DNA of 53,279 nucleotides from a virus (IMGVR_UViG_3300017705_001145:1-53279); one strand, 5' to 3'; positions 2,662 to 20,066 are shown, counted from the stretch's first letter. Translations and numbers: made by a program. The notes: a model not told the origin generated them from the letters alone.

Positions 2662-3429
2662 ATGATTGAACGTGACGAATTTTTGCAAGAACTAAAAGAA
2701 GAGAAGCGTTTACGCAAAACAGTCCGTGGACTCCTTAGAACATGGCTTAACGAAAAAACGGTGGCCGAGAAGAAAGGTGCGCTTGAAGAAAGTAGGTTGC
2801 GCACTTTAATTCAACAATTAGTTGTTGAATCTAACGCAACGGATATTGCTGCAGAACAACCTCATGAAAGCACCGGCATAAATGAGCTTAAAAAGCTGCT
2901 GGTCAACATCATTCCTACAATTGAGGACGACTACAAGACTCTCACCAGTAATAAAGAACAAAGATCATCTTTTAGAGCGCACATCCTTAACGCAATACAA
3001 AATTCTTTGGAGCCAGTTGATATTTTAGCCAACGCGGATAGTGAGCCAACTGAAGAATTAGCGGAAGCAGAAGATGACGTCACCATTAAAACAGTATCGG
3101 ATGAAGAAAAATTTATTCCAGTAAGAGATCTCGACCAAGAAGAAGAAGTTGAAGAAGAAGAAGAGGCTTTTAGCACTATTGAAGGAATGGATGAAACTGG
3201 CCGAAATTTCGCTGCGAATACTTATAATAAAATTGAAAAACAAATTTTAAGTACTTATGAAAGTTTAGCTAGTGAAGAAGATCGCGATAAGTTTTATGAT
3301 TATCTATTAACTAACTTAAAATTATACTTTGACAAGTTTGAAGATGAGCTTAAGACAGTAGTACCAGAGCCTGAATCACCAGATTATAATCCTGAATCAG
3401 CAGAAGGCACTGCAGATGTTACTTTATAA
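2662..3429 (+). CDS. Acidic hypothetical phage protein, possibly head-associated
   Basis: 255-aa ORF; repeated E-x-x-LR..I/V..L helices (EEKRLRKTVRGLL, EESRLRTLIQQL) and Glu-rich linkers. Confidence 0.7.
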   Translation: MIERDEFLQELKEEKRLRKTVRGLLRTWLNEKTVAEKKGALEESRLRTLIQQLVVESNATDIAAEQPHESTGINELKKLLVNIIPTIEDDYKTLTSNKEQRSSFRAHILNAIQNSLEPVDILANADSEPTEELAEAEDDVTIKTVSDEEKFIPVRDLDQEEEVEEEEEAFSTIEGMDETGRNFAANTYNKIEKQILSTYESLASEEDRDKFYDYLLTNLKLYFDKFEDELKTVVPEPESPDYNPESAEGTADVTL

Positions 3430-3444
3430 GAAATAATAAATTAA

Positions 3445-3474
3445 TTTAAAAATATTTTATCATAAAAATATACT
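3445..3474 (+). promoter_or_regulatory. Putative sigma70-like promoter (TTTAAA-18 nt-TATACT) for a probably leaderless HTH gene-tmRNA transcript
   Basis: TTTAAA 3445-3450 and TATACT 3469-3474; ATG at 3483 is 8 nt downstream with no Shine-Dalgarno sequence. Confidence 0.4.
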
Positions 3475-3482
3475 TAAGTCAA

Positions 3483-3872
3483 ATGATTTGGAATAAAAAA
3501 AAGAAATCACCTACCAAATACCAAAGCTATAGCACTATTAATAAATTCAAGTCTGAAGGTAAAATTACCTCTGAGTCTTTGAATATCATCAATAACATTT
3601 CGCTGGAAGATCTAATAGCTATTAAGCTAGAGTTGACAACTAGATATTTATGTGGTAAACTCTTTGGAATACCAATTTGGCGTACTGCTCGCTTAGCCGT
3701 TACTGATGCGCTTTTAAAAACCGCACTAAGTATCAGCAGAACTAAGAGAGAAGGTGCTAGATTTTTAGGTATTGATTATATGGATTTTAATAGACTTATT
3801 AAAAAACATAAAACAGAGTCTTTTTTCGAAAATGGGGGTGAAACGGTTTCGACAGAGAAGAAAGAGAATTAA
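3483..3872 (+). CDS. Putative Fis-like helix-turn-helix DNA-binding protein; last 13 codons including the stop overlap the tmRNA
   Basis: C-terminal DALLKTALSISRTKREGARFLGIDYMDFNRLIKKH fits the Fis/NtrC HTH pattern (..L..AL......AA..LGI....L...). Confidence 0.6.
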   Translation: MIWNKKKKSPTKYQSYSTINKFKSEGKITSESLNIINNISLEDLIAIKLELTTRYLCGKLFGIPIWRTARLAVTDALLKTALSISRTKREGARFLGIDYMDFNRLIKKHKTESFFENGGETVSTEKKEN

Positions 3873-4138
3873 TGTGCAAGACTGTGAGAGTAGCACAGTA
3901 AAAATACTCAACTTTTTATAAATGCTAACAATAATGTTGAGCTTGATTACGCACTAGCTGCTTAATCGGAAGTTTTTAGTAACTTTCTTAAGAAATACTA
4001 AACATTTCCAGTTTTAAGAAAAACTGGTGGTACGCGCAGTGGATTTAAAGCTTGTTGGAGCAGAAAACCAACTAATCTTGTGAATGACATGATTTTTAAT
4101 CTTTTTTGGACTCGGGTTCGACTCCCGACACCTCCACC
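3834..4138 (+). ncRNA. ssrA: tmRNA (transfer-messenger RNA), tag peptide ANNNVELDYALAA
   Basis: 5' GGGGGTGAAACGGTTTCGAC; acceptor stem GGGGGTG/CACCTCC with a G3-U wobble and discriminator A4136; T-arm TCGGG-TTCGACT-CCCGA; PK1 (ACTGTG/CACAGT, GAGTA/TACTC, 3881-3909); resume codon GCT at 3924 after ATAAAT; tag ends YALAA-TAA at 3965. Confidence 0.97.
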
Positions 4139-4149
4139 TTATAATTTCC

Positions 4150-4179
4150 TTTAAATTTTTCGTATTTGTATGATAGACT
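4150..4179 (+). promoter_or_regulatory. Putative sigma70-like extended -10 promoter
   Basis: TTTAAA (4150-4155), 18 nt, TGA-TAGACT (-10 at 4174-4179), upstream of the ORF at 4259. Confidence 0.45.
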
Positions 4180-4258
4180 GAGAAACGAAAGATATTGAAG
4201 ATGATTTAAGTTAATAATAATATTAAAGAAAAGATTAATAAATAAAATTGGAGAAATA

Positions 4259-4498
4259 ATGACTGAAGAAGAAAATACTAATATTAAAACTAAAACTTGG
4301 TCTACTATAGCTATATTTGAAACTTATGAAGAAGCGCTATCTCACAAAAATACTATTAAAGATCAACATGAATTAGTTAAAATTAAAGCTTGCGATAAAA
4401 CAAAGGATAAGTGGTCTTATAAAATAAAAACTTGGTCTAAACCGGAAGAAAAGACCAATAAAAAAACTAAGAAAAAAAAGAAAGGAAAAAGTAAATGA
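4259..4498 (+). CDS. Small basic hypothetical protein
   Basis: 79-aa ORF, GGAGA RBS, Lys-rich tail, ATGA overlap with the next gene. Confidence 0.7.
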   Translation: MTEEENTNIKTKTWSTIAIFETYEEALSHKNTIKDQHELVKIKACDKTKDKWSYKIKTWSKPEEKTNKKTKKKKKGKSK

Positions 4499-4710
4499 CC
4501 ACTCGTCGATTTGCATATGATTTAAATGGTGATAAAATAGCCGTTGGTTCGCGGGTCAAATACAAAAATAAAATTTATCTTTTAGAAGATATAGAATACC
4601 TCAGTTGGAATATTAATCAATATTTAACCTTAACTGAGCAAAAAAATAAAAATAAAAAAATTAAATTTGTTTCTTCTAACGAAGTGGCTAAATTTAGAGG
4701 ACGCTCATGA
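4495..4710 (+). CDS. Small hypothetical protein, possible SH3/KOW-like beta-barrel
   Basis: 71 aa; DLNGDKIAVGSRVKY pattern; coupled to both neighbours by ATGA overlaps. Confidence 0.6.
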   Translation: MTTRRFAYDLNGDKIAVGSRVKYKNKIYLLEDIEYLSWNINQYLTLTEQKNKNKKIKFVSSNEVAKFRGRS

Positions 4711-5831
4711 AAAAAAACGTTTTAATAGTTGGTACTGGTACGATTGGCGAGCCTTTGATTGGCTTGTTTGCTGATTATCATGAAAAGCTGGATATCGATA
4801 ACGTTTTCTTTCATAAGCGAACTCCTTTAAAGGACGAAATAGCTAAAGTTAATAGTATGGTAAAGCGCGGCGCAAAACTGGTGGTTGATAAAGAATGTAT
4901 CGATAGTTTTAAGAAAATAGGACACGATCCAAAATTAGATTTCGACACTGCTTTGAATTTAGCTGATGTTATCATTGACTGTACCCCAGCCGGTAACGAA
5001 AACAAAGAAAAATTTTATTTGCCTCTTTTAAAAGCTAAATGTAAAGATAAAGGGTGTATGGTCAATGAGTGTGAGGGAAGATTTTGTGGAAACAAAAGAA
5101 GGTTATTTATCGCACAAGGCAGCGAAAAGAATTTCGGCATGCCTTATGCTTACGGAATTAACGATGAAGCTCTTCAAACCGCAGATTCTAGTTTTATTCA
5201 GGTCGTTAGCTGTAACACTCACAACATCGCTTCTTTAGTCAAAACCCTCTCTTCTGGGGATTTTTATAATATAATTCGAGGTGATTTTACATGCATACGC
5301 AGAGCAAATGATATAAGTCAACATGGCGGGTTTATTTCTTCGCCGGAAGTCGGCATGCATAGCAACGGCCAATATGGTACTCATCACGCAAAAGACGCCG
5401 CAGATCTTTTTTCCACATTAGATTATCACCCGGATATATTCTCCAGTGCTTTAAAAATTAATAGCCAATATATGCACATTATTCGCTTCAATATCGAAAT
5501 TAAAGGATTCGCAATTGAAAAAGACATCATTAATAATTTTATAAATAATAAATTGGTGGCCATCACACATAAAACTTTAGCTAATAAAGTGTTTTCTTTT
5601 GGACGAGATCACGGCTATTATGGGAGAATCTTTAATCATACCGTCGTCGCGACGGATTCTATATTAGCCAAAAGATATTATGGAAACACGAGAGTATCCG
5701 GCTTTTGTTTTACACCGCAAGATGGCAATTCACTATTAAGCAGCGCTGCAGCAACACTTCAGTTTATTCATGGAGAAAGATATTTAAATTATATGAAGGA
5801 GTTTGATGACTATTTATTTCAACAGATATGA
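4707..5831 (+). CDS. gap: Glyceraldehyde-3-phosphate dehydrogenase, archaeal/class II-like
   Basis: GTGTIG Rossmann motif, IIDCTP, IAQGSEK, catalytic VVSCNTH, IRRAND, GTHHAKD and YMH match class II GAPDH signatures (GYGTIG, DATP, FQGGEK, VVSCNTT, RR..D, SHH..D, MH). Confidence 0.8.
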   Translation: MKKNVLIVGTGTIGEPLIGLFADYHEKLDIDNVFFHKRTPLKDEIAKVNSMVKRGAKLVVDKECIDSFKKIGHDPKLDFDTALNLADVIIDCTPAGNENKEKFYLPLLKAKCKDKGCMVNECEGRFCGNKRRLFIAQGSEKNFGMPYAYGINDEALQTADSSFIQVVSCNTHNIASLVKTLSSGDFYNIIRGDFTCIRRANDISQHGGFISSPEVGMHSNGQYGTHHAKDAADLFSTLDYHPDIFSSALKINSQYMHIIRFNIEIKGFAIEKDIINNFINNKLVAITHKTLANKVFSFGRDHGYYGRIFNHTVVATDSILAKRYYGNTRVSGFCFTPQDGNSLLSSAAATLQFIHGERYLNYMKEFDDYLFQQI

Positions 5832-6163
5832 AAAGCTTTTATATAAAAGAAATAGATTACGTTTGCAGCCCTTCTGATTTATATATTCGGATGGTCCATG
5901 ATCCTTCCCATGGTAAGGTTCAAGTTAATTTTCACAATTTCAATTCTAGAAACTTTTTTGTATCCCAAACAATGAGAATAACGGATAAAAAAGAAGATTT
6001 TGATGTACTTCTTAGAGTTATTTTAATATCATTGTTTGAAATGTATGATCGGGCTGGATTCCAAGAGAATATATTGAATGGCGAGATACAGGGTCTCTTT
6101 TTCTATGATAACTTAGAGTGGGTAAAGAGCAAATCTGGATCTCTGATTTGGAAGAGAGGATGA
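5828..6163 (+). CDS. Hypothetical protein
   Basis: 111-aa ORF with an ATGA overlap to the GAPDH-like gene. Confidence 0.65.
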   Translation: MKSFYIKEIDYVCSPSDLYIRMVHDPSHGKVQVNFHNFNSRNFFVSQTMRITDKKEDFDVLLRVILISLFEMYDRAGFQENILNGEIQGLFFYDNLEWVKSKSGSLIWKRG

Positions 6164-6166
6164 AAA

Positions 6167-6931
6167 CTATAATTTGTGGGGAATCTGATAACTATTGGAT
6201 TGATATTTCTCTTGTACATTTTCAATCAAGTTTCGTCTAATAAACTGTTTTAAATCATCATACCTCACAGACAAGACCACTTGTTTCATTCTCATATATA
6301 CCGAATGTAATAAGCCAACCAATTCACCTTTTTCATTTAAGATCATTGAACCGCTTGAACCGGGAGCAGCGGGAAATACGTACATATCGTCGTCCATCGT
6401 CCGACCTATGTATCTTCCTTCAAATAAAGGAATAACGTTATAACTGTGAATGCCATATGGAGAGGCAATATTAAATATTTTATCGCCTTCTTTTGGTCCT
6501 CTTTCTGCGATATTAACTGTTTCCACATCACTGACCATATCCTCGACGAACATTATACACGCATCAATTTTAGAGTTATAATCGAGTATTTTAGCATTAA
6601 AATAACGTCCGGTTAGCGTTTCTACTTTTAGTCTGGTTCGAAGCTTAATTTTTGGATTCGCTCGGAGACTTTTCGCAGGTAAGCACACGTGAGCAGCAGT
6701 AACGACGTAAGAACCTTTATAAGATGTCTTCACTATAAACCCGGAACCAACAGCAACGTATCTATCTTGTATACACTTCTTTTTTTTGCATGCATGGATA
6801 TCTACAATCTTTTTTATAAAAACATATCCCTTTCGCGGCAGCACGTCAGCAGCGGAAAACTTTAAGTAACCACTGTTACAAGAAACACTAAACGCTAGCA
6901 ACAAAATTATTAATATCACCTTTTTAGACAC
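6167..6931 (-). CDS. Trypsin-like (S1) serine protease with N-terminal signal or lipoprotein peptide
   Basis: GSGF, VTAAHVC (His), IDAC (Asp), APGSSGS (Ser); N-terminus MSKKVILIILLLAFSVSC; GTG start with a GGAGG RBS on the minus strand. Confidence 0.88.
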   Translation of the reverse strand: MSKKVILIILLLAFSVSCNSGYLKFSAADVLPRKGYVFIKKIVDIHACKKKKCIQDRYVAVGSGFIVKTSYKGSYVVTAAHVCLPAKSLRANPKIKLRTRLKVETLTGRYFNAKILDYNSKIDACIMFVEDMVSDVETVNIAERGPKEGDKIFNIASPYGIHSYNVIPLFEGRYIGRTMDDDMYVFPAAPGSSGSMILNEKGELVGLLHSVYMRMKQVVLSVRYDDLKQFIRRNLIENVQEKYQSNSYQIPHKL

Positions 6932-7062
6932 TTTCGAATCCTCCTTTTATTCTGTTGAACTTCTTGTTCTTCTAATAATAACTATGAAATAAAAACCTTT
7001 GTTCGTTATTAATGAAATAAAATATGCAAACTATTTATTATATAGCGCTGTAAAGCCGCTAT

Positions 7063-8391
7063 ATGATTGAGAAATTTATGGCTAAAAAAATTTATGTTTT
7101 AGACACAAGCGTTTGCTTAACAGATTCCCATTCTCTCCTTTCTTTTGAAAATAATGACATTGTGTTACCCCTCAAAGTCCTAGAAGAGATAGATAATCAC
7201 AAAAAACGCCAAGATAGTGTTGGAGCCAATGCGCGAGAGGTTATTCGAAAGCTCGATAGTTTGCGAGAAACCGGCAGTCTTTATAAAGGTGTGCGAATTA
7301 GTGACGACAAAGGAAAAATATATGTTAAGCTATGCAAGAGAGAAAACCTTCCGGATGATTTAGATCTTTCCATACCAGATAATGAAATAATCGCCGTCGC
7401 TATTAATCAAAAAGAAGAATATCCTCGAAAAAAAGTAATCGTCGTTACTCGTGATATTAACATGAGGGTGAAGTGTGATGCCCTCGGTTTGATAACAGAG
7501 GATTATCAATCCAATCAAGTAGTACAGGATTCAAATCACCTTTATACTGGATTCGTTGAGCATTTGGTGGACGATCCAAAATTAGATTTGTTTTACAGTG
7601 ACGAAGATATTTTTATAGAAGAAGAAGAGCTAACGTTAATGCCGAATCAATTTGTGATGTTAGTTTCAAATCAAAACGACAAGAAAACGGGGTTGGCCAA
7701 GTTTATTAATTACAACACACCTTTAAAGCGCCTCAATGGTAAATACAAACAGGGCATATGGGGAGTAAAGCCTAGAAACAAAGAACAAATATTTGCCTTA
7801 AGTCTTCTCAAAGATAAAAATGTTGATATAGTAACGTTGGTTGGCAAAGCCGGTTCGGGAAAAACACTCCTCGCAACCGCCGCCGGATTACAACAAGTCA
7901 TGGAATCTCAAGAATACCGTAGACTGGTTATTTCGCGCCCGATACAGCCAATGGGCAAGGATATCGGTTTTTTACCCGGAACAATGGAAGAGAAAATGGC
8001 GCCTTGGGTAGCGCCCATCCAAGATAACCTTAGATTTCTTATGGGCAATGATCGCGAAAATCTTAAGATGTACATGGATAACGGAACAATTGAAATAGAA
8101 GTATTAACTTACATCAGAGGCCGCTCAATATCAGATGCATATATTATAATTGATGAAGCTCAGAATCTAACAGCGCATGAACTAAAAACCATCTTAACTA
8201 GAGTGGGCGAAAATACTAAAATTGTACTTACCGGAGACATCGAGCAAATTGATAACGTATATATTGACGAAACCTCCAATGGTTTAACTCATGCTGTCGA
8301 AAAATTCAAATCATATGACCTTTCAGGTCATGTAACACTAATTAAAGGCGAGCGTTCCAAGATCGCAACACTCGCTTCAAAAATACTTTAA
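7063..8391 (+). CDS. phoH: PIN-PhoH fusion protein (PhoH2/YlaK-like); start may be 7078
   Basis: PIN motifs YVLDTS, VLEEID, PDNEI and VTRDINMRVK; PhoH motifs GKAGSGKT, ISRP, GFLPG, IRGRS, IIIDEAQN and GDIEQID. Confidence 0.93.
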   Translation: MIEKFMAKKIYVLDTSVCLTDSHSLLSFENNDIVLPLKVLEEIDNHKKRQDSVGANAREVIRKLDSLRETGSLYKGVRISDDKGKIYVKLCKRENLPDDLDLSIPDNEIIAVAINQKEEYPRKKVIVVTRDINMRVKCDALGLITEDYQSNQVVQDSNHLYTGFVEHLVDDPKLDLFYSDEDIFIEEEELTLMPNQFVMLVSNQNDKKTGLAKFINYNTPLKRLNGKYKQGIWGVKPRNKEQIFALSLLKDKNVDIVTLVGKAGSGKTLLATAAGLQQVMESQEYRRLVISRPIQPMGKDIGFLPGTMEEKMAPWVAPIQDNLRFLMGNDRENLKMYMDNGTIEIEVLTYIRGRSISDAYIIIDEAQNLTAHELKTILTRVGENTKIVLTGDIEQIDNVYIDETSNGLTHAVEKFKSYDLSGHVTLIKGERSKIATLASKIL

Positions 8392-8440: not shown

Positions 8441-8716
8441 ATGAAAAATAAAATCGATGAAAATCCGGACCTTTTTAAAGTTGTAGGCAAGGAAAATGAT
8501 TTAAAAGAATTGTTAGTAGAATATGTTGGAGATAAAATCAAGCCCGAAAATAACGAAGTAACAGTAGAAATGGTTATTGAAGTAATGTCGGTAGATTTTC
8601 CGGAAATCCTTTTAGTTATAGCAGAAGAAAACTTTGTTCGCGGTTATCAACAAGCGATATACGACGTCGATAATTTAGATCCAAAAGAAGCGACGTCCAT
8701 CATTAAAAATAAATGA
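8441..8716 (+). CDS. Hypothetical phage protein
   Basis: 91-aa ORF with a strong RBS; AEENFVRGYQQA helix. Confidence 0.75.
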   Translation: MKNKIDENPDLFKVVGKENDLKELLVEYVGDKIKPENNEVTVEMVIEVMSVDFPEILLVIAEENFVRGYQQAIYDVDNLDPKEATSIIKNK

Positions 8717-9363
8717 AATCATACATTGTAGAATCAGCCAAGGCTGCTAAACAAACAACATTGTTTGGGAAACCGGTATCTATAGTACACCCTTTCACAA
8801 ATAAGCTAGATTTTGATTCAGTTATACGCCATATAGAAGAAAAGCTTCCCGAGCCTCTTGCTGCTAATTTTGAGGGGATTTATGTGGGAAAATTTAAGGA
8901 TGTACCCTTCAACGCGCTGTTTAAGGATGGCGTTATATATGTAACCAATGATCAAGATAATGAAGTTGATTTATTAGACGATATTATACATGAAATCGCA
9001 CACTCTCTCGAAGAAACGAACGATGATCTAATCTATAGTGATCAGCAGCTAGAAACAGAATTCTTATCAAAGCGCAGAAGAATGCATTATTTAGTTGACA
9101 AGTCGACGATGAATATGGTATACTATTTAAGTCCTGATTATCAAGCCAACTTTGATGATCATTTACATAGAGAATTAGGATACGATTATTTGCGGACATT
9201 AACATCAAACCTATTTTATTCACCATATGCTATTACTTCTTTGCGTGAATATTGGGCTAACGGTTTTGAAAACTATTTATTAGGCGATAAACGAAAGCTT
9301 AAAGACTTAAGTCCGGTTTTATATAGCAAGATAGAACAAATATTTGATAATGTAAAGGAATAA
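8713..9363 (+). CDS. Zincin-like metallopeptidase
   Basis: IIHEIAH (HExxH) and downstream REYWANGFE carrying a third-ligand Glu. Confidence 0.7.
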   Translation: MKSYIVESAKAAKQTTLFGKPVSIVHPFTNKLDFDSVIRHIEEKLPEPLAANFEGIYVGKFKDVPFNALFKDGVIYVTNDQDNEVDLLDDIIHEIAHSLEETNDDLIYSDQQLETEFLSKRRRMHYLVDKSTMNMVYYLSPDYQANFDDHLHRELGYDYLRTLTSNLFYSPYAITSLREYWANGFENYLLGDKRKLKDLSPVLYSKIEQIFDNVKE

Positions 9364-9769: not shown

Positions 9770-10552
9770 ATGTCCCACATATCTTATTCAGAATTAAAAA
9801 CATGGGTGGAGTGCGCATGGAAGCACAAACTCAACTATATTGAAAGAATTAGCCCATTCAAAGGTAATGAATACACCGCCTTTGGTACAGCTTTACACAC
9901 AGTTTGTGAAAACTTAGTACTTGAAAAAGAAGTCAATTTAAAAACCCTCTTTCAAGAAGAATTTTTAAACAATCTTACAATTCTTAAAAAAGGAGACCCA
10001 GATCTTCAATTTAAAGCCGATTTGATCAGTCAAATGCGAGTGCAAGGAGATCAAATAATAGAACACATCCTTCCGGCGCTAAAACAGTACTTTGGCAACT
10101 TTAAATTGATTGAGGTAGAAGAAAAGCTATTCGAAGATATAGAAGAAAAAGACTATAATTTCAAAGGCTTCATCGACCTTGTGATTCAAACAAAAGACGA
10201 AAAATATCACATTATTGATTGGAAAACATGTTCTTGGGGCTGGGATTCTAGAAAAAAATCTGATAAGATGATTACCTATCAACTTACTCTTTATAAACAC
10301 TTTTGGTGTATAAAGCACAACGTCGACCCGATATCGGTACAAACTCATTTTGCTCTTCTCAAGAGAACCGCTAAAAACAATCTAGTAGAAATCTTTAAAG
10401 TTTCCAGTGGCGCAAAAAAAACCGAGAACGCCCTTAAATTATTAAATAAAGCGATATATAATATTAAAAGAAAAAGCCATATCAAAAACAAACTATCGTG
10501 TCATGGAAGATATGGTACATGCGAGTTTTATAAAACAGAACACTGTCCTTGA
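9770..10552 (+). CDS. Cas4-like/RecB-family PD-(D/E)xK exonuclease with a 4-Cys (Fe-S) staple
   Basis: ISYSELKTWVEC, GTALH, E..L, KGFIDL, IIDWKT, YQLTLY and C-terminal CHGRYGTCEFYKTEHC. Confidence 0.85.
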   Translation: MSHISYSELKTWVECAWKHKLNYIERISPFKGNEYTAFGTALHTVCENLVLEKEVNLKTLFQEEFLNNLTILKKGDPDLQFKADLISQMRVQGDQIIEHILPALKQYFGNFKLIEVEEKLFEDIEEKDYNFKGFIDLVIQTKDEKYHIIDWKTCSWGWDSRKKSDKMITYQLTLYKHFWCIKHNVDPISVQTHFALLKRTAKNNLVEIFKVSSGAKKTENALKLLNKAIYNIKRKSHIKNKLSCHGRYGTCEFYKTEHCP

Positions 10553-10559
10553 GGTTAAA

Positions 10560-11828
10560 ATGAAAAAAATTAAAATTCTTACAATATCGGATATGCCGTT
10601 ATCACCTAGCGGCGTCGGTACTCAAACAAAATATATTTGTGATGCCCTTCTAAACACAGGAAAATTTCAAATTGTTAGTTTGGGCGGCGCCATCAAACAC
10701 CCATCTTATCAGCCGATCAAAACAGATAAATATGGAGATGATTGGGTCATTCTTCCAGTCGATGGATATGGTAACCAAGAAATGTTGCGCTCTATTATTA
10801 GACAAGAAAAGCCGGATATTTTATGGTTTATGACCGATCCACGTTTTTGGGGATGGTTATGGGAAATGGAAAACGAGATTAGGCCTCTCATGCCGATGGT
10901 GTATTATCATGTTTGGGATAACTATCCATATCCTACATATAATAAAAAATTCTACGATTCCAATGACTTTGTTGCATGTATTTCGAAGGTCACTGCTGAT
11001 ATTGTTAAAAATGTCTCACCGGATGTAAAATCGGAATATGTGCCGCACGCAGTCGATGGGAATATTTTTAAACCGGCCGAAGACCTAGAAATGGTAGAAA
11101 ATTTCAAGAAGCAAGTTTTCGGGGATCTTTACGATCCAGAAAAATTTGTTTTCTTTTGGAACAACAGAAACGCCCGGCGAAAGCAAAGCGGTTCATTAAT
11201 CTTTTGGTTCAACGATTTTCTTAAAAAAGTAGGTAAAGATAAAGCCTGTTTAGTAATGCACACAGAAGTAAAAGATCAGCATGGACAAGATCTGCAGGCT
11301 ATTATAGAAGAATTGGGCTTAACAAACGGAGAGGTGCTTTTTAGTCAAGTAAAAGTAGATCTTCCCAAACTAGCACTAATGTACAATATTTCCGATTGTA
11401 CTATTAATATTTCTGACGCAGAAGGCTTTGGCCTCGCAACTCTAGAATCCCTTTCTTCCGGTACTCCCATTATTGTTAATATGACTGGCGGCCTTCAAGA
11501 GCAAGTAACAGACGGCGAAAATTGGTTCGGAATTGGATTAGAACCAGCTTCTAAAGCAGTAATTGGTTCTCAAAATATCCCATGGATATATGAGGATAGA
11601 TTAGACGGCAAGACTGTTACTCAAGCCATGGAAGACGTCTATTCCATGAGTAAAGAAGAACGAGAAGCGATGGGCCTTTTAGGGCGCGAACATGTTATGA
11701 AAAATTATAATTTTGAAGATTTTAATAAAAGGTGGATTGATTTGCTAACAAACCTTCATGAAGAAGAAGGTTCATGGGAGACTAGAAAGGATCGAACCAC
11801 ATGGGTATTAAAGGAGATATCTGCATGA
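10560..11828 (+). CDS. Glycosyltransferase, GT4/GT-B family (start reassigned from 10503)
   Basis: ILTISD..PSGVG, NRNARRK, SDAEGFGLATLESLSSGTPII; GAGG RBS before ATG 10560. Confidence 0.9.
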   Translation: MKKIKILTISDMPLSPSGVGTQTKYICDALLNTGKFQIVSLGGAIKHPSYQPIKTDKYGDDWVILPVDGYGNQEMLRSIIRQEKPDILWFMTDPRFWGWLWEMENEIRPLMPMVYYHVWDNYPYPTYNKKFYDSNDFVACISKVTADIVKNVSPDVKSEYVPHAVDGNIFKPAEDLEMVENFKKQVFGDLYDPEKFVFFWNNRNARRKQSGSLIFWFNDFLKKVGKDKACLVMHTEVKDQHGQDLQAIIEELGLTNGEVLFSQVKVDLPKLALMYNISDCTINISDAEGFGLATLESLSSGTPIIVNMTGGLQEQVTDGENWFGIGLEPASKAVIGSQNIPWIYEDRLDGKTVTQAMEDVYSMSKEEREAMGLLGREHVMKNYNFEDFNKRWIDLLTNLHEEEGSWETRKDRTTWVLKEISA

Positions 11829-13072
11829 AAGTTTTAGTAAGAGGACCAGCATTAACACGTACAGGATACGGAGAACATTGCCGTTTTGTGCTTCGAGCTT
11901 TAAGAGAAGTAGAAGATCTAGATATCTATCTAATACCGGTAAATTGGGGTCAATCCAGCTGGGTTTGGGAAGATAACGAAGAAAGACGATGGATGGATGA
12001 AATTATCAAAAAGACCGCGATGCATAATCAAGCCAAAGGTCAATATGATATGAGTATTCAAGTTACTATTCCTAACGAATGGGAACGAATGGCCCCAATT
12101 AATATTGGCGTAACTGCGGGAATTGAAACTACCAAGATCGCACCACAATGGATTGCGAAAGCCAACGAAATGGATAAAGTTATCACGATCTCCGAACATT
12201 CTAAGCAAACTTTCGTTAATACAGTTTACGAAGGGACCAACCAAAATACCGGCAAAGTAGGATATCTTAAATGTACAAAAGAAGTGGATATAGTCCACTA
12301 TCCCGTCAAACATTATGATGAAATCGATTTGGACTTGGATTTCACAACAGAATTTAATTATCTCACAGTTGCTCAATGGGGTCCAAGAAAAAATATTATT
12401 AATACTGTTTTATGGTTTGTTGAAGAATTTATCGACAATCCGGATGTTGGCTTGGTTGTAAAAACATTTGCCAAAGGCGGCTCTATTATTGATAGACTTG
12501 AAGCAGAAAAACAACTTAATAACTTTTTAAAGAAATACGAACATAGAAAATGTAAAGTTTATCTCCTTCATGGAGACTTGACGGATCAGGAAATGCACTC
12601 TCTTTATAAACACCCAAAAATCAAAGCCTTAGTATCTTTAACTCATGGAGAAGGCTTTGGCCTCCCATTATTTGAAGCAGCTTATTCAGGACTGCCCGTT
12701 GTCGCGACAGATTGGAGCGGACACCTTGATTTCCTTTACGTGCCTGTAAAGGACAAAAAGAACAAGGACAAAGAAAAATATAAAGCTCACTATGGTAAAG
12801 TTGATTACGACCTACAACCTGTACAGAAAACAGCGGTTTGGGATGGGGTTGTTCAAGAAGACTCGATGTGGGCATATGCACAGCAAGGCTCATATAAAAT
12901 GAAGCTTCGCGAAGTTTACAAAGAACATGGGCGATTTTTGAAGCAAGCTAAAGCACTTCAAAAATGGATCCTAAAGAATTTCACCGCAGAACAACAGTAT
13001 GCAGCGTTTAATGATCACGTAAAAAAATATATTGTAGAAGAAGTCAGTGAAGAAATTCAGGTATATGTGTGA
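11825..13072 (+). CDS. Glycosyltransferase, GT4/GT-B family (start reassigned from 11801)
   Basis: TGYGEH, RKN, HGEGFGLPLFEAAYSGLPVVATDWSGHLDF; AAGGAG RBS before ATG 11825. Confidence 0.9.
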   Translation: MKVLVRGPALTRTGYGEHCRFVLRALREVEDLDIYLIPVNWGQSSWVWEDNEERRWMDEIIKKTAMHNQAKGQYDMSIQVTIPNEWERMAPINIGVTAGIETTKIAPQWIAKANEMDKVITISEHSKQTFVNTVYEGTNQNTGKVGYLKCTKEVDIVHYPVKHYDEIDLDLDFTTEFNYLTVAQWGPRKNIINTVLWFVEEFIDNPDVGLVVKTFAKGGSIIDRLEAEKQLNNFLKKYEHRKCKVYLLHGDLTDQEMHSLYKHPKIKALVSLTHGEGFGLPLFEAAYSGLPVVATDWSGHLDFLYVPVKDKKNKDKEKYKAHYGKVDYDLQPVQKTAVWDGVVQEDSMWAYAQQGSYKMKLREVYKEHGRFLKQAKALQKWILKNFTAEQQYAAFNDHVKKYIVEEVSEEIQVYV

Positions 13073-14706
13073 AATTCTTAATAGTAGCAGACGTCTTATC
13101 TAGCGAATTATTAGGCGGCGGCGAAATAAATAACAAAATTCTCTGTGATGAATTAAATAGCAGAGGATATATATCTCAAGAAGTAAAGTCTACTTCCGTT
13201 ACCCCACAATTTATACAAAACAACATAGATAATTATTTTATTGTTTCTAATTTTGTTTTGCTCTCCAAAGAGTCTCGAGAAGAATTAAGAAAAGCAAAGT
13301 ACGTTATTTATGAGCATGATCATAAGTATCTTCCGAATAGAAACCCGAGATCCTACAGAAACTACCGCGCCCCTTCATCAGCAATAATCAACAAGGACTT
13401 TTATAAAAATGCAATCGCCATTCTGTGTCAAAGCAAAGCCCACAGTATGATATTAAAAAATAATCTTTTTTTAGACAACGTTAAAAACTTAGGCGGCAAT
13501 CTTTGGACTGATTATCACTTTGATTTATTAGAAAAAAAAATAAACATTGAGAAGGTCGATAGATTTTCAATCATGGATTCTAAAATAGGCCACAAGAATA
13601 CAAAAGGGTCTGTTAAATATTGTGAACAAAGAAATGCAGACTATCAACTAATATCTTCCGATACGTATGAAGAGTTTTTAAACATGCTAGGTTCGAACTC
13701 AAAATTTTGTTTTTTCCCGAAAGTACCAGAAACTTTTAGTAGGGTAGTATTAGAAGCTAGAATGATGGGTGTAGAAGTTCACACAAATAATCGTGTTGGA
13801 GCAGCAAGCGAAGATTGGTTTTATTTAAAAAAAGGTGAATTGATCACAAAAATGAAAGAAATACGTGATAAAACGATCAATACCTTAGTTGAACTGTTTA
13901 CTGACGAGAAAACTATAAAACTATATGATTATGAGTATAATTCTACTCCAAAAGTTAGTTTAGTCACGTCACTTTATAAAGGTGATCAGTACATAGAAAG
14001 ATTTTTGGAAAACATGACCGAACAAAGCATCTTTGAGCATGCTGAACTGATTATAATTAATGCTAATTCTCCCGGTAACGAAGACGAAATCATTAATGAA
14101 TACTGTGAAAGATACAATAATATAAAATATAAAAAACTGGATTATGACCCGGGCATATATGGATGTTGGAATATAGGCATCGAAATGGCAAAGGGTGAAT
14201 ATATTTCCAATGCTAATTTAGATGATGTTAGATCATTACAACAATTAGAAATTCTCGTAAAGGAATTAGATTTAAACAACGATATTGATTTAGTATACTC
14301 AGAATGCTTTTTAACAAAAAACCCCAACGAAACTTACGAAAATAATTCGTCTAATGGCCAAGTATACCCGATTACGGATTTTAGCGCTGAAAACATGATA
14401 AAATGTTTACCCGGTTGCATGCCTGTTTGGAGAAAGTCCATGCATGATAATATTGGACTATTTGATAATCAGTATGCTTCCGCTGGAGATTGGGAAATGT
14501 GGTTAAGGGCGGTTAAGAACGGTTCGAGCTTTAAAAAAATAGAAGGCATTTATGGCCTCTATTATATGAACCCAGAGGGACTATCAACAGACCCGAAAAA
14601 ACAAAAAGAAAAGTTCAAAGAAGAAAAACTAGTTTTCAATAAATACAAAAAGTTATTTGGCGTTGAAAATATAAAAAAATATAAGGTATACTTTGAACAG
14701 AAGTAG
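13069..14706 (+). CDS. Bifunctional glycosyltransferase (GT-B-like N-terminus plus GT2 C-terminus)
   Basis: N-terminal LGGGEI...PETFSRVVLEARMMG; C-terminal PKVSLVTSLY, NANSP, NANLDD, AGDWEMWLR; GTG start. Confidence 0.85.
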   Translation: MKFLIVADVLSSELLGGGEINNKILCDELNSRGYISQEVKSTSVTPQFIQNNIDNYFIVSNFVLLSKESREELRKAKYVIYEHDHKYLPNRNPRSYRNYRAPSSAIINKDFYKNAIAILCQSKAHSMILKNNLFLDNVKNLGGNLWTDYHFDLLEKKINIEKVDRFSIMDSKIGHKNTKGSVKYCEQRNADYQLISSDTYEEFLNMLGSNSKFCFFPKVPETFSRVVLEARMMGVEVHTNNRVGAASEDWFYLKKGELITKMKEIRDKTINTLVELFTDEKTIKLYDYEYNSTPKVSLVTSLYKGDQYIERFLENMTEQSIFEHAELIIINANSPGNEDEIINEYCERYNNIKYKKLDYDPGIYGCWNIGIEMAKGEYISNANLDDVRSLQQLEILVKELDLNNDIDLVYSECFLTKNPNETYENNSSNGQVYPITDFSAENMIKCLPGCMPVWRKSMHDNIGLFDNQYASAGDWEMWLRAVKNGSSFKKIEGIYGLYYMNPEGLSTDPKKQKEKFKEEKLVFNKYKKLFGVENIKKYKVYFEQK

Positions 14707-14719
14707 GAGGAGTTGATTC

Positions 14720-15628
14720 ATGAAATTCGTCGTTACCGGTGGAAGAGGTTTTATTGGAAGTCACTTTGTAGAAGCTGCCCTTGAAAAAGGGCATAGCGTT
14801 TTTGATATAGATAAAATGACTTATGCTGCTCATAAAACTTTACCGTGGGACAATCATCCGCACTATAAGCTTATTATGGACGATATACAAAATATAACGC
14901 ACCTCCCTCCGTGCGACATAGTAATTAATTTTGCAGCAGAAAGCCACGTCGATAACTCCATTTCGTCTTCAAAAACTTTTGTAGAAAGCAACATTGTCGG
15001 TACACACAATCTTTTAGAGTTAGTTCGTGGGAAGGCATATGAAAGACCATTGTTCTTTCAAATAAGCACGGATGAAGTATATGGAGATACTCCGATTAAA
15101 AGTGATGCTTTTTCTGAAACAGATATGTTGCTCCCTAGTAATCCTTATTCTGCGTCGAAGGCTGCAGCCGAAATGTTGATACTTTCTTATGCAAGGACTT
15201 ATGGGGTTAAATATATTATTACGAGAAGTAGTAATAATTATGGCCACCGGCAATATGAAGAAAAACTAGTTGCCAAGTGCATAAGCTGTTTTAAAGAGAA
15301 AAAACGAATACCTCTCCATGGTTCAGGCAATTATATGAGAGACTGGATTTATGTAGAGGATAATATCGCTGCGATCTTTAGTCTAATCGAATCAGACATC
15401 GCAAATGAAACGTTTAATATCGCCGCAGGCAACGAGCTAAAGAACATAGACATTGTTAAAGAAATAATGAAGTGGTTTGATCTTGACGAAGAGAAGTGGG
15501 AAGATCATGTTAACTTTGTTGATGATCGCTTGGGTCAAGACACACGCTATGCACTAAATTGTGAGAAGATACAGTCTTCTACAGCTTGGAGGCAATCCAA
15601 AAGCAGAGGCCTTAAAAAGCTCATATGA
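14720..15628 (+). CDS. rfbB: dTDP-glucose 4,6-dehydratase
   Basis: VTGGRGFIG, FAAESHVDNSI, ISTDEVYG, PYSASKAA, SNNYG, RDWIYVED, DRLGQDTRYA. Confidence 0.93.
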   Translation: MKFVVTGGRGFIGSHFVEAALEKGHSVFDIDKMTYAAHKTLPWDNHPHYKLIMDDIQNITHLPPCDIVINFAAESHVDNSISSSKTFVESNIVGTHNLLELVRGKAYERPLFFQISTDEVYGDTPIKSDAFSETDMLLPSNPYSASKAAAEMLILSYARTYGVKYIITRSSNNYGHRQYEEKLVAKCISCFKEKKRIPLHGSGNYMRDWIYVEDNIAAIFSLIESDIANETFNIAAGNELKNIDIVKEIMKWFDLDEEKWEDHVNFVDDRLGQDTRYALNCEKIQSSTAWRQSKSRGLKKLI

Positions 15629-16545
15629 GGCATTATTGCACAATATCAGATAAAGAATACCTCCTCTGCGCATTGACTCTTCACGATTCAATGTTAGAAA
15701 ACGAAAAAGAAGAGTTCAGGCTTTATTTTTTATGTTTGGATGATTATACTTATAGCTTTCTTCAAGAGAAAAAATTAAAAAATATTATTCCTTTCCATAT
15801 CAAAGACATTGAGAACCAAGACTTTAAACTAAAAAGCTCCTATTACAATGCCCCGAGCATTGAAGCTTCGGAGAGCGCCAAAAATAAACAAAAGAGCGCG
15901 CACTATATTCAATATTGTTGGTCTCTAGCGCCATATTTTTCTTGGTATCTTTTGATGAATAAAAAAACAGATCATATAGTATATGTCGACTCGGACATTG
16001 TTTTTTACAAAGATATGAAGGGACTTTACAGTGAGGTTGGTGAAAAAAGTGTTGGGATCGTTAGACATAGAATTGATTATCAGGAAAGCTCCGGAGAATA
16101 TAACGTCGGTATTGTATATTTTAAAAATGACGAGATTGGTAAAAAATGCTTAAGCTGGTGGAAGAACATACTTTTAGAGCCAAACAATCCTTATTATAAA
16201 ACTCATGGTATGTGTGGCGACCAAAAATATTTAGAACTTTTTGAACCACTTTTTGGAACTAACAATGTTTGTATTGTCGATAAAACTGTGGGTCACTTGG
16301 CCCCATGGAATGTTACTTATCACAAGTATCATAACGGAAAAATAATTTGGGAAGAACAAGAGCAAGACTTATATTACTTTCATTTTGCGCACTTTGTTCC
16401 TTATTTTGAAAGAAATACGTATAGGACATCATATAAGAATGAGTGGGTTTGGGGCGAACCAGCAGCATCAAATGAGTTTGTTAAACAAAAATATGATGGC
16501 TATTTCATAAAAATGAAAAATATCAAAAATAGGATGGGACTATGA
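15625..16545 (+). CDS. Putative GT-A fold glycosyltransferase
   Basis: YVDSD (DxD), YNVG, GDQKYL, LAPWN, YYFHF. Confidence 0.75.
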   Translation: MRHYCTISDKEYLLCALTLHDSMLENEKEEFRLYFLCLDDYTYSFLQEKKLKNIIPFHIKDIENQDFKLKSSYYNAPSIEASESAKNKQKSAHYIQYCWSLAPYFSWYLLMNKKTDHIVYVDSDIVFYKDMKGLYSEVGEKSVGIVRHRIDYQESSGEYNVGIVYFKNDEIGKKCLSWWKNILLEPNNPYYKTHGMCGDQKYLELFEPLFGTNNVCIVDKTVGHLAPWNVTYHKYHNGKIIWEEQEQDLYYFHFAHFVPYFERNTYRTSYKNEWVWGEPAASNEFVKQKYDGYFIKMKNIKNRMGL

Positions 16546-18098
16546 GTGAATTAAAAATCGCCTTCGGTATGATTATATTTGAGGGTGATTACGTGCTTGA
16601 GGCCTGTTTAGAGAGCATATATCCATATGCTACTCAAATTTTAATATCGGAAGGCCCCGTTTCATTTTGGCAACAACAGGGCAAAACTACGAGCGGCGAT
16701 CAAACAAATCAAATTTTAGAGTCATTCCCAGACCCGGAAAACAAAATCGTCGTCGTCCATGGACAATATGATGAAAAAGATGAGCAATCCAACGCCTATA
16801 TAGAACATCTAAAAGACGATATTGATTATTTATGGCAAGTAGACTCAGATGAGATATATAAGCAAAAAGATATTGAAAAGATGATTGATATTCTTAAAGA
16901 AGAAAAATATACTAGCGTCGGAGTCAAAAGTTGCTCCTTTTATGGAGGGTTCGATAGAATAATCGGTGGATTTGAAGAAAGAGTAGATAACTTCTTACGA
17001 ATCTTTAGGGTGTTTCCCCAAAGCCGCTGGTTAACTCACCGCCCACCAACAATCGAACACACCGGGGAATATAAAGATGTCGAGAAAAAACATTTAGATA
17101 GCGATACTTTGTTTTTTAAACACAACATTCAGATGTATCACTATTCTTATACTTTTCCAAAACAAGTTTCCGATAAGATTAGTTATTATAAAGCAAAGGT
17201 GAGCAGAGAGAACTGCATCGATTTTTATGTTGATAAAGTCTATATTCCATGGATGCAAGCGCAAAATGCTGATTCTAAGTTTGAAGTAGAAAATTTATAT
17301 CATGGCGTGCACGAATTTAAACCTAGAGTACGCGGTGAAGCTTTCACAAGACAATTCCTCGATAAACACCCGGCATCAATAGAAAAAAGAATACCCGAGT
17401 ATAAAAAAAGAATAGAAGAGGAGTTCGACAATCTTTTGCTATCTTGTAAAAAAGAAGCAGCCCAAATAGATGATAAAATATGTTGGCTAGATAACGACTC
17501 TGTACCGGCCGAAATGCTTAAAGGGGCAACAGGAGTATTATGGCCAAAGCTGATACATTCAGATCATGTACACGTGTTATCAACATTGTTAGATTTTTGC
17601 AAAGAGGAAACAGAAAACATTTTGGACCTAGGTTGCGGCGCCGCCGAACTATCATCGTTATTGACTCATAAGTGGCCAAATAAGAAGTTTAATTATTCCG
17701 GCGCAGATCTCCCAAACGTTATTGACTTGGTTGCGAAAAAGCTTCATCCGGATTATGAATATATCAAATTAGACGTCTTAAGCGACGATTTAAATTTTCT
17801 AAATAAGTATGATTTAGTTGTAATGAACGCATTCATAGACGTTATGCAGAACCCCTTAGCCACTCTGCTTAAAATTTTAAAAAACTCTAGTAAAGGTGTT
17901 ATAATACATAGACAAAGATTAACAAAGGATTTTACTGGCTCAAAGTTGATTGATTCTGCATATGGAAAGCAAACTTATAGCTCTTGTATAAGCGAAAGCG
18001 ACTTGATTAGAATATTAAACATGTGTGAGTACAAAGTAGAAAAGTATTCCCACTGGAGTAGTGATTTTTATAGTCTTCTTTTGAAGAAAATTAAATAA
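16542..18098 (+). CDS. GT2-like glycosyltransferase fused to a class I SAM methyltransferase
   Basis: N-terminal WQVDSDEIY and MYHYSY; C-terminal ILDLGCGAAE and YDLVVM. Confidence 0.8.
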   Translation: MSELKIAFGMIIFEGDYVLEACLESIYPYATQILISEGPVSFWQQQGKTTSGDQTNQILESFPDPENKIVVVHGQYDEKDEQSNAYIEHLKDDIDYLWQVDSDEIYKQKDIEKMIDILKEEKYTSVGVKSCSFYGGFDRIIGGFEERVDNFLRIFRVFPQSRWLTHRPPTIEHTGEYKDVEKKHLDSDTLFFKHNIQMYHYSYTFPKQVSDKISYYKAKVSRENCIDFYVDKVYIPWMQAQNADSKFEVENLYHGVHEFKPRVRGEAFTRQFLDKHPASIEKRIPEYKKRIEEEFDNLLLSCKKEAAQIDDKICWLDNDSVPAEMLKGATGVLWPKLIHSDHVHVLSTLLDFCKEETENILDLGCGAAELSSLLTHKWPNKKFNYSGADLPNVIDLVAKKLHPDYEYIKLDVLSDDLNFLNKYDLVVMNAFIDVMQNPLATLLKILKNSSKGVIIHRQRLTKDFTGSKLIDSAYGKQTYSSCISESDLIRILNMCEYKVEKYSHWSSDFYSLLLKKIK

Positions 18099-18114
18099 AG
18101 AATGAGGCAAGGAC

Positions 18115-18861
18115 ATGAACATTTATAATAAAATTGGTACTCCGCCGTGGAACCGGCAAGACTTCTTGGAGAATTTAGAAGAGTTCTCAGAGGTGTATAA
18201 AAACCGGCCCGTAAAGAGCAACGATGGCGGCATGAAAGCCGCACAGCTATTTTATGCTTGGTATACAATAAAAAAGTTGCAACCAAAGGTTATTATAGAA
18301 AGCGGCGTCTGGTATGGGCAAGGCACATGGGCATTTGAACAAGCGGCACCAGACGCCGCTCTACATTGTATAGATCCGACACCTAGGTATAAATCTTTAG
18401 AAGGCTATGAATCTAAAAAAGCAACTTATTATACATCAGATTTTCTTAACTTGGACTGGTCTAAGGTTGAAAAGGATGGCACATTGTGTTTTTTCGATGA
18501 TCACCAAAACGCTCTAGAAAGAGTGCTTCGCTGCAGCCAATTGGGGTTTAAAACTATAATGTTTGAGGATAATTACCCTTTTGGCCAGGGCGATTGTTAT
18601 AGTATAAAAAAAGCGCTTAATAAAAATGAAATAAGAGATATAATCCCGGGGCTAAAAATATCTGACTATATAAAACATATCACAAAAACGTATTTAGAAT
18701 TTCCCCCAATTTTTGCAGCCGAAGAAAACAGGTGGGGTCTTCCATGGGAAACTTATGAAACGCCGGTACCCCTGCTAGAAGAGGTTGAAGAAGAATATCA
18801 AAAAGTTTATTTAGAGGAATTAAAAAATTATACTTGGATAAATTATATGGAGTTAAAATAA
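18115..18861 (+). CDS. Putative methyltransferase-fold protein
   Basis: PKVIIESGVWYGQGT (motif I-like), HCIDP, FFDDHQN, MFEDNY. Confidence 0.55.
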   Translation: MNIYNKIGTPPWNRQDFLENLEEFSEVYKNRPVKSNDGGMKAAQLFYAWYTIKKLQPKVIIESGVWYGQGTWAFEQAAPDAALHCIDPTPRYKSLEGYESKKATYYTSDFLNLDWSKVEKDGTLCFFDDHQNALERVLRCSQLGFKTIMFEDNYPFGQGDCYSIKKALNKNEIRDIIPGLKISDYIKHITKTYLEFPPIFAAEENRWGLPWETYETPVPLLEEVEEEYQKVYLEELKNYTWINYMELK

Positions 18862-19250
18862 TGTTAGATAAGCTCTCTTTTAAAAAAGACAAAAGAGGGG
18901 TTTTGATACCTTTGGACTTTGATAAACTACCTTTTACCCCAAAGAGATCCTTCTTTGTCAAAGACGTTCCAAAAAATACTATTAGAGGCGCGCATGCACA
19001 TTATAAAACCAAACAATTTATAATATGTTTATCCGGCGAGATACAAGCAATTCTGGACAACGGCATAGCAAAGGAAGAAAAAACCTTGAAAGAAGGTGAA
19101 ACACTTTTTCATGATAGTCTAGAGTGGGGCGAATTTACCTTCTTGTCCGGCCAAGAACAAATGTGGGTTTTTTGTTCTACACCCTATGATAGTTCTGACT
19201 ATATTTCTGATTATGAAGAATTTGTTAATATTATTAAAGGAGATGCTTAA
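18861..19250 (+). CDS. fdtA: dTDP-4-keto-6-deoxyglucose 3,4-ketoisomerase (FdtA/QdtA cupin)
   Basis: DKRGVL, PFTPKR, RGAHAH, QFIICLSG, YDSSDYISDYEEF; start reassigned to the TAATG overlap at 18861. Confidence 0.85.
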   Translation: MLDKLSFKKDKRGVLIPLDFDKLPFTPKRSFFVKDVPKNTIRGAHAHYKTKQFIICLSGEIQAILDNGIAKEEKTLKEGETLFHDSLEWGEFTFLSGQEQMWVFCSTPYDSSDYISDYEEFVNIIKGDA

Positions 19251-20066
19251 ATGAATATACCTGTGATATTTTTTCACCTAGGATACCAGAATTATTTATC
19301 AAAAACAATAAGACAAGCAAAACTTAATAACGAGAGGGTTATTTTGCTTGGTGATTCCAACAATAGCCACTTAGATGTAGAACACCATGATATAACAAAA
19401 TATATTAATATGTTCGAAGATTTTAATAAGATATACAGACACATGTCTGCTAATAATCCGCAATTAGAATATTTGTGTTTTATTAGATGGTATATACTTA
19501 AAAATTTCTTAGAAGAGAACAACATCGAAAAATGTTTTTATTTTGATTCAGATATAATGCTATATTCAAACATGTCGGAACAAGTAGATAGTTTTCTTAG
19601 CCAATCAAACGGCTTTTGTGTTCCCTATGAACAACCGGAATTTCGATGGAGCGCTAGCGGCCACAATTCTTTTTGGACCAAACAAACTTTAGGCGAATTT
19701 TGCGAATTTATTTTCAACACATATGCTTCGAAAGAAGGCATAAACAAACTTAAGCAAAAATGGGATCATCATGTAAAAAACAATCAACCCGGCGGAATAT
19801 GTGATATGACATTATTTTGGTTATTTTTCGACTCCAAAAACGGCGAAAACATTGATATACTTAGTGATGTTATTGATGGCTCAACATATGACGATAATAT
19901 TAATTCCTCGGATAATCGCTTTAAAAATGAGTATAGAATGAAAAACAACATCAAAGAAGTTGACTGGAAGGACGGTAAACCTTATTGTTATAATTTAAAA
20001 TTGAACAAATGGATACGCTTTAATACTTTGCACTTTCAAGGCGAGACCGCTAAACTATTATTATGA
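19251..20066 (+). CDS. Putative glycosyltransferase-like protein
   Basis: CFIRW, FYFDSDIMLY (DxD), GGICDMT, LHFQG. Confidence 0.55.
   Translation: MNIPVIFFHLGYQNYLSKTIRQAKLNNERVILLGDSNNSHLDVEHHDITKYINMFEDFNKIYRHMSANNPQLEYLCFIRWYILKNFLEENNIEKCFYFDSDIMLYSNMSEQVDSFLSQSNGFCVPYEQPEFRWSASGHNSFWTKQTLGEFCEFIFNTYASKEGINKLKQKWDHHVKNNQPGGICDMTLFWLFFDSKNGENIDILSDVIDGSTYDDNINSSDNRFKNEYRMKNNIKEVDWKDGKPYCYNLKLNKWIRFNTLHFQGETAKLLL

Follow-up and report, generated by a model that had tools for sequence, protein, structure and literature searches.

Phosphorylating glyceraldehyde-3-phosphate dehydrogenases (GAPDHs) have been described in class I, which includes GapA and the NADP-dependent gluconeogenic GapB of Bacillus and is modelled by TIGR01534, and in class II (EC 1.2.1.59), the archaeal enzymes with solved structures from M. 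fervidus (1CF2), S. solfataricus (1B7G), P. horikoshii (2CZC) and M. jannaschii (2YYY). The nucleophile strand of the class II enzyme, its sites for the phosphate of glyceraldehyde-3-phosphate (G3P) and for inorganic phosphate (Pi), its activating base and its NADP-type lysine are named in passages of a 2025 review (PMC12041015, citing Charron et al. 2000), according to which the catalytic histidine of class I differs from that of class II. Among marine phages, cyanophages carry the central-carbon genes CP12, talC, zwf and gnd, which plausibly steer the supply of NADPH, ATP and precursors. GAPDH genes of giant viruses are the subject of existing papers. The concept of phage auxiliary genes for carbon metabolism, including glycolysis families in Pacific Ocean viromes, is set out in part of PMC4053976. 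Here we describe a GAPDH-like gene at positions 4707–5831 (+ strand) of IMGVR_UViG_3300017705_001145:1-53279, a 53,279-nucleotide stretch of viral DNA that is referred to below, as a whole, as the window. The encoded protein is a member of a separate, large, well conserved and unmodelled sister family of canonical class II GAPDH.

The interval 4707–5831 is exactly one long open reading frame (ORF), which begins with ATG and encodes 374 aa; the remaining frames there reach 50–64 aa. The original prediction, made from the DNA alone, had read this frame as an archaeal-type (class II) GAPDH in a phage of otherwise bacterial appearance, citing four motifs, and the coordinates and all four motifs are as it described: IAQGSEK at residues 135–141, VVSCNTH at 166–172, RRAND at 198–202 and THH at 225–227. 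Its placement with class II and not class I also stands. The best NCBIfam profile is the type II GAPDH model NF003251 (73.7 bits, E = 1.3e-20, below its cut-off of 185), and thus the top match is not to another Rossmann family. A second type II model, TIGR01546, gives 44.3 bits against a cut-off of 232.9, and the class I model TIGR01534 only 24.6 bits against 367.2. The class I motif SCTTNC does not occur in the 374-aa translation, where its equivalent is SCNTH; class I enzymes nonetheless share the reaction class and the superfamily, and a bacterium with both a class I enzyme and a member of this family would resemble one with the GapA/GapB division of labour.

Structural comparison points the same way. 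In HMMER searches the closest solved structures by sequence are the archaeal class II GAPDHs 1b7g, 1cf2, 2yyy and 2czc. An AlphaFold model built on a 44-sequence alignment has a pLDDT of 90.8 and a pTM of 0.90, and the six best Foldseek matches to it in the PDB are all archaeal class II GAPDHs, drawn from those same four structures (TMq 0.72–0.75, 19–21% identity, E ∼1e-20 to 1e-21), with class I GAPDH lower at a TM of ∼0.56. The modelled protein is accordingly assigned a class II GAPDH fold, and it is similar in length to the archaeal enzymes bar one loop insert. No similar structure was found among the viral structures of BFVD, where the best TMq was 0.37 to generic Rossmann oxidoreductases, and a PHROGs search with the protein returned nothing meaningful.

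Residues of the phage protein were paired with those of known enzymes through HMMER alignments to 1b7g and 1cf2, and they recover the functional positions of the class II active site, all on the + strand. The Rossmann glycine motif for dinucleotide binding, G9-T-G11-T-I13-G14, is encoded at 4731–4748; its residues G9, G11, I13 and G14 are at least 90% conserved both in the family and in canonical class II, and invariant in alignment A1, a 44-sequence family alignment that includes the window protein. Lys37 (4815–4817) corresponds to the NADP-type lysine of the M. fervidus enzyme, Lys33. The active-site strand S168-C169-N170-T171-H172 (5208–5222) contains the catalytic cysteine, C169, equivalent to Cys140 of 1cf2, and its first four residues align with Ser139-Cys140-Asn141-Thr142 of that M. 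fervidus structure. The Arg167/Arg168 pair of the phosphate sites is matched in R198-R199-A-N-D202 (5298–5312), the His193/His194 pair of the Pi site in H226-H227 (5382–5387), and His219, the base that activates the class II cysteine, in H257 (5475–5477).

These positions are held throughout the family and in class II proper. When 163 rows of the family are set against 13 of canonical class II, the paired catalytic, phosphate-site and NADP-type residues are at least 90% conserved in both groups, except H227, which is present in 81% of the family rows and in 100% of the canonical ones. At the same level of conservation the two groups have in common the Rossmann glycines, K37, D91, Y104, Q137, G138, the SCNT strand, R198, R199, D202, H226, D230, H257 and Q338. 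Among copies in a phage context, 20 key residues are invariant in all 18, including K37, the SCNT strand, R198/R199, H226/H227 and H257. Judged by these alignments, the phages maintain a gene with an intact class II-type active site.

The loop insert that sets the phage protein apart in length is lineage-specific and carries four cysteines, C112, C117, C122 and C127, with the spacing C-x4-C-x4-C-x4-C (residues 112–128, encoded at 5040–5090, + strand). It is a 14-residue loop and was seen, among the 18 phage-context copies, only in the window protein and in that of locus L118, which is 95% identical. All four cysteines are retained in L118 although two substitutions separate the two inserts. 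Model confidence is low in this part, with pLDDT below 50 at residues 112–116 and 118–127. The insert may be a small zinc or redox site.

The relatives of the GAPDH-like protein are numerous. At least 6989 database proteins match it at E≤0.001 (8000 candidates scored), the closest being 95% identical and the next ones 55–73%, and the representatives of clusters at 50% identity include 609 matches at E≤0.001, of which 110 reach E≤1e-30. Alignment A1 has 59 columns that are invariant in its 44 sequences; the family-invariant columns, all present in the window protein, include GTGTIGEP, AQGSE, SCN-H, RR--D-S, GTH, N-QYMH, FSFGR-HG--GR and T-QDGN. A family hidden Markov model (HMM) built from A1 gives the window protein 589.8 bits, a score that is partly circular since this protein is one of the 44 training sequences. 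Members score 455–590 bits, with loci outside A1 in the same range, whereas 14 canonical archaeal class II genes score 57–81 bits, and nothing lies between the two populations. NF003251 separates them in the opposite sense, with 418–515 bits for the canonical archaeal genes and 43–117 bits for family members.

Phylogenies were constructed from rows thinned at 78% identity from 292, using FastTree on 176 rows and IQ-TREE with a mixture model on 65 rows. In both trees the canonical class II enzymes form their own clade beyond the longest branch, with a support of 100. The family is therefore distinct, and of the label archaeal-type GAPDH only the class II likeness can be kept; the phage protein is not the canonical archaeal enzyme, falling well short of the cut-offs of both type II models. 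Some members are labelled GAPDH (NAD(P)) or type II by JGI and KEGG-style pipelines. The broad kind of protein is thus already known. What appears to be new, as far as our literature searches show, is that the family stands apart and lacks a model, that it probably serves some archaea as their one GAPDH, and that marine phages stably retain it.

A pattern scan across prokaryotes, with each species represented by one genome, gave the distribution of the family in cellular organisms and yielded 79 loci with 38–52% identity to the phage protein. Most of these are in Thermoanaerobaculia and other Acidobacteriota and in Marinimicrobia (Fidelibacterota), and others are in Spongiisociaceae and Acidimicrobiia (Actinomycetota), Binatia and Lentisphaeria. 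A few are in archaeal bins assigned to Heimdallarchaeota, Bathyarchaeia, Thermoplasmatota and Methanobacteriota. Unlike archaeal class II GAPDH, the family is mostly bacterial and viral. It is not archaeal in distribution, the majority of its genome-resolved members being bacterial, and its presence in a bacterial phage therefore needs no cross-domain story.

The archaeal carriers are especially informative about function. Of 41 genomes sampled from a single archaeal phylum, 24 have a canonical class II gene above the cut-off, eight have only the family type (99–117 bits), and none has both; the probability of zero overlap under random assortment is ∼2.5e-4, with independence overstated if the carriers are a single lineage. 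No class I GAPDH was found in six archaeal carriers (G028, G044, G017, G039, G034 and G011) either, and four other carriers have one. Phosphoglycerate kinase (PGK) is present in all five that were tested of these six. In three of them, G034, G044 and G011, pgk is followed immediately by the family gene in the same orientation, as confirmed by Pfam on the locus DNA. These pgk-linked copies are 45–47% identical to the phage protein, score 537–548 bits with the family HMM, and sit among the bacterial copies within the cellular clade of the IQ-TREE phylogeny. The family enzyme thus appears to be the sole GAPDH in some archaea, and it is mainly because of this pairing with pgk and the absence of any other GAPDH that we assign G3P dehydrogenase activity to the family.

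In viruses the gene is carried by 16 IMG/VR contigs. We examined 96 viral and metagenome loci and found the gene order of the window in 27 of them, a count that is not one of independent contigs since some records are in both collections. The shared order consists of small ORFs, the GAPDH-like gene, a trypsin-like protease on the opposite strand, PIN-PhoH, a nuclease and glycosyltransferases. Across these 27 loci the GAPDH-like gene is 54–97% identical, a divergence about that of PhoH (62–100%). A further 15 loci, with 63–66% identity, show a second context with a phage endonuclease, a methyltransferase and phage-only families, and this second neighbourhood is that of a second phage lineage. 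In the FastTree phylogeny the window lies in a 65-row clade (support 99) in which 55 rows are metagenome proteins and eight come from viral contigs, the other two being the window and an unlabelled cluster representative, P0121; no genome-resolved cell is among them. In the IQ-TREE phylogeny the phage clade (support 94) is beside the cellular clade (support 85) and not inside it.

Comparison of the window gene with that of L118 gives a nonsynonymous divergence (dN) of 0.022 and a synonymous divergence (dS) of 0.573, for a dN/dS of ∼0.04; the phage gene is under purifying selection. It thereby combines the features by which a phage auxiliary metabolic gene is recognized, namely location in a true phage genome, conservation in related phages and purifying selection. 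Cultured phages are remote from this group. A search of 50,697 GenBank phage records gave one weak match to the protein (21% identity over 60% of the query), and in a baseplate protein the closest cultured phages reach only ∼30% identity. Cluster look-up returned hardly any names; a 76%-identical relative is binned in Nitrospinaceae, but its contig is short (≤5.6 kb) and too weak a basis for naming a host. One viral contig stands apart: the copy at 6001–7110 of L095 (156,696 bases) falls outside the phage clade, among Marinimicrobia genomes. The virus call may be wrong and L095 cellular, or it may be a prophage or have captured the gene recently from a host.

We think it probable, from the conserved residues and gene contexts, that the GAPDH-like protein is a working NADP(H)-type phosphorylating GAPDH that serves the phage as an auxiliary metabolic gene. 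As to substrate, cofactor, direction of flux and benefit to the phage, we infer the following. Catalysis would proceed by a class II-type mechanism, in which Cys169 would form the thiohemiacetal and thioester, His257 would act as the base, and Arg198/Arg199 together with His226/His227 would hold the two phosphates; Lys37 suggests that NADP(H) is accepted. At least two marine tailed-phage lineages keep the gene, probably as an auxiliary metabolic gene, and during infection its product would act with the host PGK at the triose-phosphate node. If it runs oxidatively, G3P would be converted to 1,3-bisphosphoglycerate, yielding NAD(P)H and then ATP; if it runs in the gluconeogenic direction, the synthesis of nucleotides and sugars would be supplied with triose and hexose phosphates. 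The parallel to cyanophages is that their carbon genes likewise act in central carbon metabolism, albeit that those are other enzymes in another phage lineage and that the host here is probably heterotrophic. An auxiliary metabolic gene, possibly feeding a sugar pathway, had been proposed in the original prediction. The first half of that proposal is plausible, the more so given the synteny, the invariance of the catalytic residues and the purifying selection; the link to a sugar pathway has no specific support.

Several observations weigh against assignment as a GAPDH. The protein is below the cut-off of both type II models, and Pfam gives it nothing above threshold, the top entry being NAD_binding_3 at 16.9 bits. 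Residue 172, immediately beyond the SCNT strand and beside the catalytic cysteine, is His in 98% of the family and Thr in class II (SCNTH versus SCNTT); the family has GTHH, with a family-only G224, where class II has PSHH; and the motifs FSFGRDHG-x2-GR (296–307) and TPQDGN (336–341) are found in the family only. Any of these may alter specificity. A class I GAPDH scoring above the cut-off, together with a second paralog of class I type, was found in every one of the five bacterial carriers tested, so the family enzyme is dispensable there for basic glycolysis. No glycolytic gene adjoins the family gene in any of the Marinimicrobia, Acidobacteriota or phage loci examined, and pgk is in none of five related phage records, all of which are partial (17–60% complete), so that its absence is not established. 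Being metagenome bins, the archaeal genomes are of uncertain completeness, and their eight carriers may be one lineage and not eight independent events. Lastly, no account of this family or of such a phage GAPDH was found in the literature, although the supplementary gene lists of PMC4053976 may name one.

Many of the same observations would be expected if the protein kept the fold and the thioester chemistry of GAPDH and acted on another substrate, such as erythrose-4-phosphate or another phosphorylated or acidic aldehyde or acyl-phosphate, with a non-glycolytic use in the phage that could be the supply of a precursor to its glycan cluster. A fold repurposed for another aldehyde substrate was the alternative offered in the original prediction. 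The sub-threshold scores, the family-only invariant residues near the active-site strand and in two C-terminal motifs, and the one or two class I-type GAPDHs already held by bacterial carriers are all in its favor, as are the recurrence of a metallo-beta-lactamase (MBL)-fold hydrolase gene, and no glycolytic gene, as neighbour in Marinimicrobia and Acidobacteriota and the presence of a sugar-gene cluster ∼4.7 kb downstream in the phage. We nevertheless regard a change of substrate as unlikely. All of the class II residues that bind the G3P phosphate and Pi are retained, three archaeal genomes pair the gene with pgk, six archaeal carriers have no other GAPDH, and those archaeal copies are within the same cellular clade as the bacterial ones. 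As for a glycan precursor, the protease, PhoH and nuclease genes separate the sugar cluster from the gene, and the cluster is not co-inherited in the second phage context.

A more elaborate form of this idea is that bacteria and phages use a new, non-glycolytic specificity of the GAPDH superfamily that is set by His172, FSFGRDHG-x2-GR and TPQDGN, for example to make a phosphorylated sugar-acid or aldehyde precursor for phage glycosylation, with the four-Cys insert adding zinc or redox control. We consider this rather improbable.

There is very little to recommend the view that the phage took a canonical class II GAPDH from an archaeon, which would imply cross-domain transfer or an archaeal host. 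The class II motifs and fold and the occurrence of some members in archaeal bins are what such a capture would leave. The phage protein, however, reaches only 73.7 bits with NF003251, where canonical archaeal genes reach 418–515, those genes in turn reach merely 57–81 bits with the family HMM, and the longest branch of both trees parts the two groups; genome-resolved members are mostly bacterial, and the phage has a transfer-messenger RNA (tmRNA). It is similarly hard to credit that the gene is an inactive relic, encodes a structural protein that moonlights, or is a cellular gene brought in by mis-assembly, for while no RNA run is listed among the sequencing runs that match sampled words of the window, the frame is intact, the 20 key residues are invariant in the phage copies, dN/dS is low, the same gene order recurs in separately assembled loci, and the gene overlaps both neighbours by four bases and matches its flanks in G+C content (0.33 at 4001–6000, against 0.35 and 0.365 in neighbouring stretches). 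One DNA run besides the possible source sample contains at least half of the sampled words.

The window as a whole is a linear IMG/VR virus record with a CheckV completeness of ∼30%, from which a full genome of ∼175 kb is estimated. Its phage nature is evident from T4-type baseplate wedge families and a gp55-like late sigma factor. The tmRNA that had been noted as an indicator of a bacterial host is recovered by ARAGORN at about 3834–4138, with a tag ending in ALAA, and by Rfam RF00023 at 114.9 bits against a gathering score of 47. To our knowledge, tmRNA is found solely in bacteria, their organelles and phages. The tag peptide is ANNNVELDYALAA and could be of use in tracing the host lineage. 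A second indicator, sigma-70-like promoters, did not hold up: in 3400–7100 there are 15, with 15.0 ± 3.6 in shuffled sequence, and hence no enrichment.

Small ORFs flank the GAPDH-like gene on the same strand, and Pfam assigns no family to either. The upstream one (4495–4710, +, 71 aa), which overlaps the start of the gene by four bases, is co-conserved in related phages, preceding the gene in most of the syntenic loci with 48–97% identity. The downstream one (5828–6163, +, 111 aa) overlaps the stop by four bases and is present in some syntenic loci with 25–80% identity. Further along, 7063–8391 encodes a PIN domain fused to PhoH (PhoH2 type), 62–100% identical across related phage contigs, whose closest isolates are jumbo phages of Bacillus and Xanthomonas at ∼35% identity. 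A 216-aa ORF at 8713–9363 is conserved in related phages with 41–61% identity; its Pfam match to PF07737 (20.3 bits, cut-off 27.4) is sub-threshold and too weak for a name.

The sugar genes form a large glycosylation cluster at 10503–21196, starting ∼4.7 kb downstream of the GAPDH-like gene. It includes two GT4 and two GT2 glycosyltransferases (one of the latter fused to a methyltransferase), a GT8, a short-chain dehydrogenase/reductase of the 4,6-dehydratase/epimerase type and a DegT-type aminotransferase, and the GT4 genes right behind the nuclease gene are conserved in related phages. In the structural region, two ORFs of ∼3000 aa each (27346–36351 and 40082–49051) lie on either side of the baseplate wedge genes, the first of them without a PHROG match.

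In the bacterial carriers the family gene lies among housekeeping genes. In Marinimicrobia the neighbours (ccm genes, an MBL-fold hydrolase, MTHFR, tilS, hpt and ftsH) give no pathway clue, nor do those in Acidobacteriota (RNR, a tRNA methyltransferase, OmpA and VWA). An MBL-fold gene adjoins the family gene at 16 Marinimicrobia loci and in one archaeal bin, and a Lactamase_B_2 gene does so at nine Acidobacteriota loci; examples of MBL-type neighbours across phyla are L030:1381-2028 and its relatives, L006:3794-4798 and its relatives, and L063. An apparent conserved neighbour, designated cluster 1, proved to be an artefact of antisense ORF calling in high-G+C DNA. The two class I-type GAPDH genes of the bacterial carriers G001–G005 form tandem pairs in which one gene passes the TIGR01534 cut-off and the other does not; in two of these carriers the first gene lies in an open frame of 696–838 aa, pointing to a fusion or to a frame that extends far upstream.

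If the assignment as a GAPDH is correct, the family would be a third, widely distributed and unmodelled lineage of phosphorylating GAPDH, comprising 609 clusters at 50% identity. Some archaea would have it as their only GAPDH, while in abundant, uncultivated bacterial groups, Marinimicrobia and Acidobacteriota among them, it would come on top of another. Its members fall below the Pfam and NCBIfam thresholds, and any pathway reconstruction based on those models would overlook them. For phage biology it would mean that open-ocean tailed phages carry and vertically maintain a core enzyme of glycolysis and gluconeogenesis, and that phage reprogramming of carbon metabolism reaches past the pentose-phosphate and Calvin-cycle genes of cyanophages to the triose-phosphate node of hosts that are probably heterotrophic. 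Belonging to a family common in bacteria, the phage GAPDH-like gene is no archaeal oddity, and is a probable metabolic helper gene.

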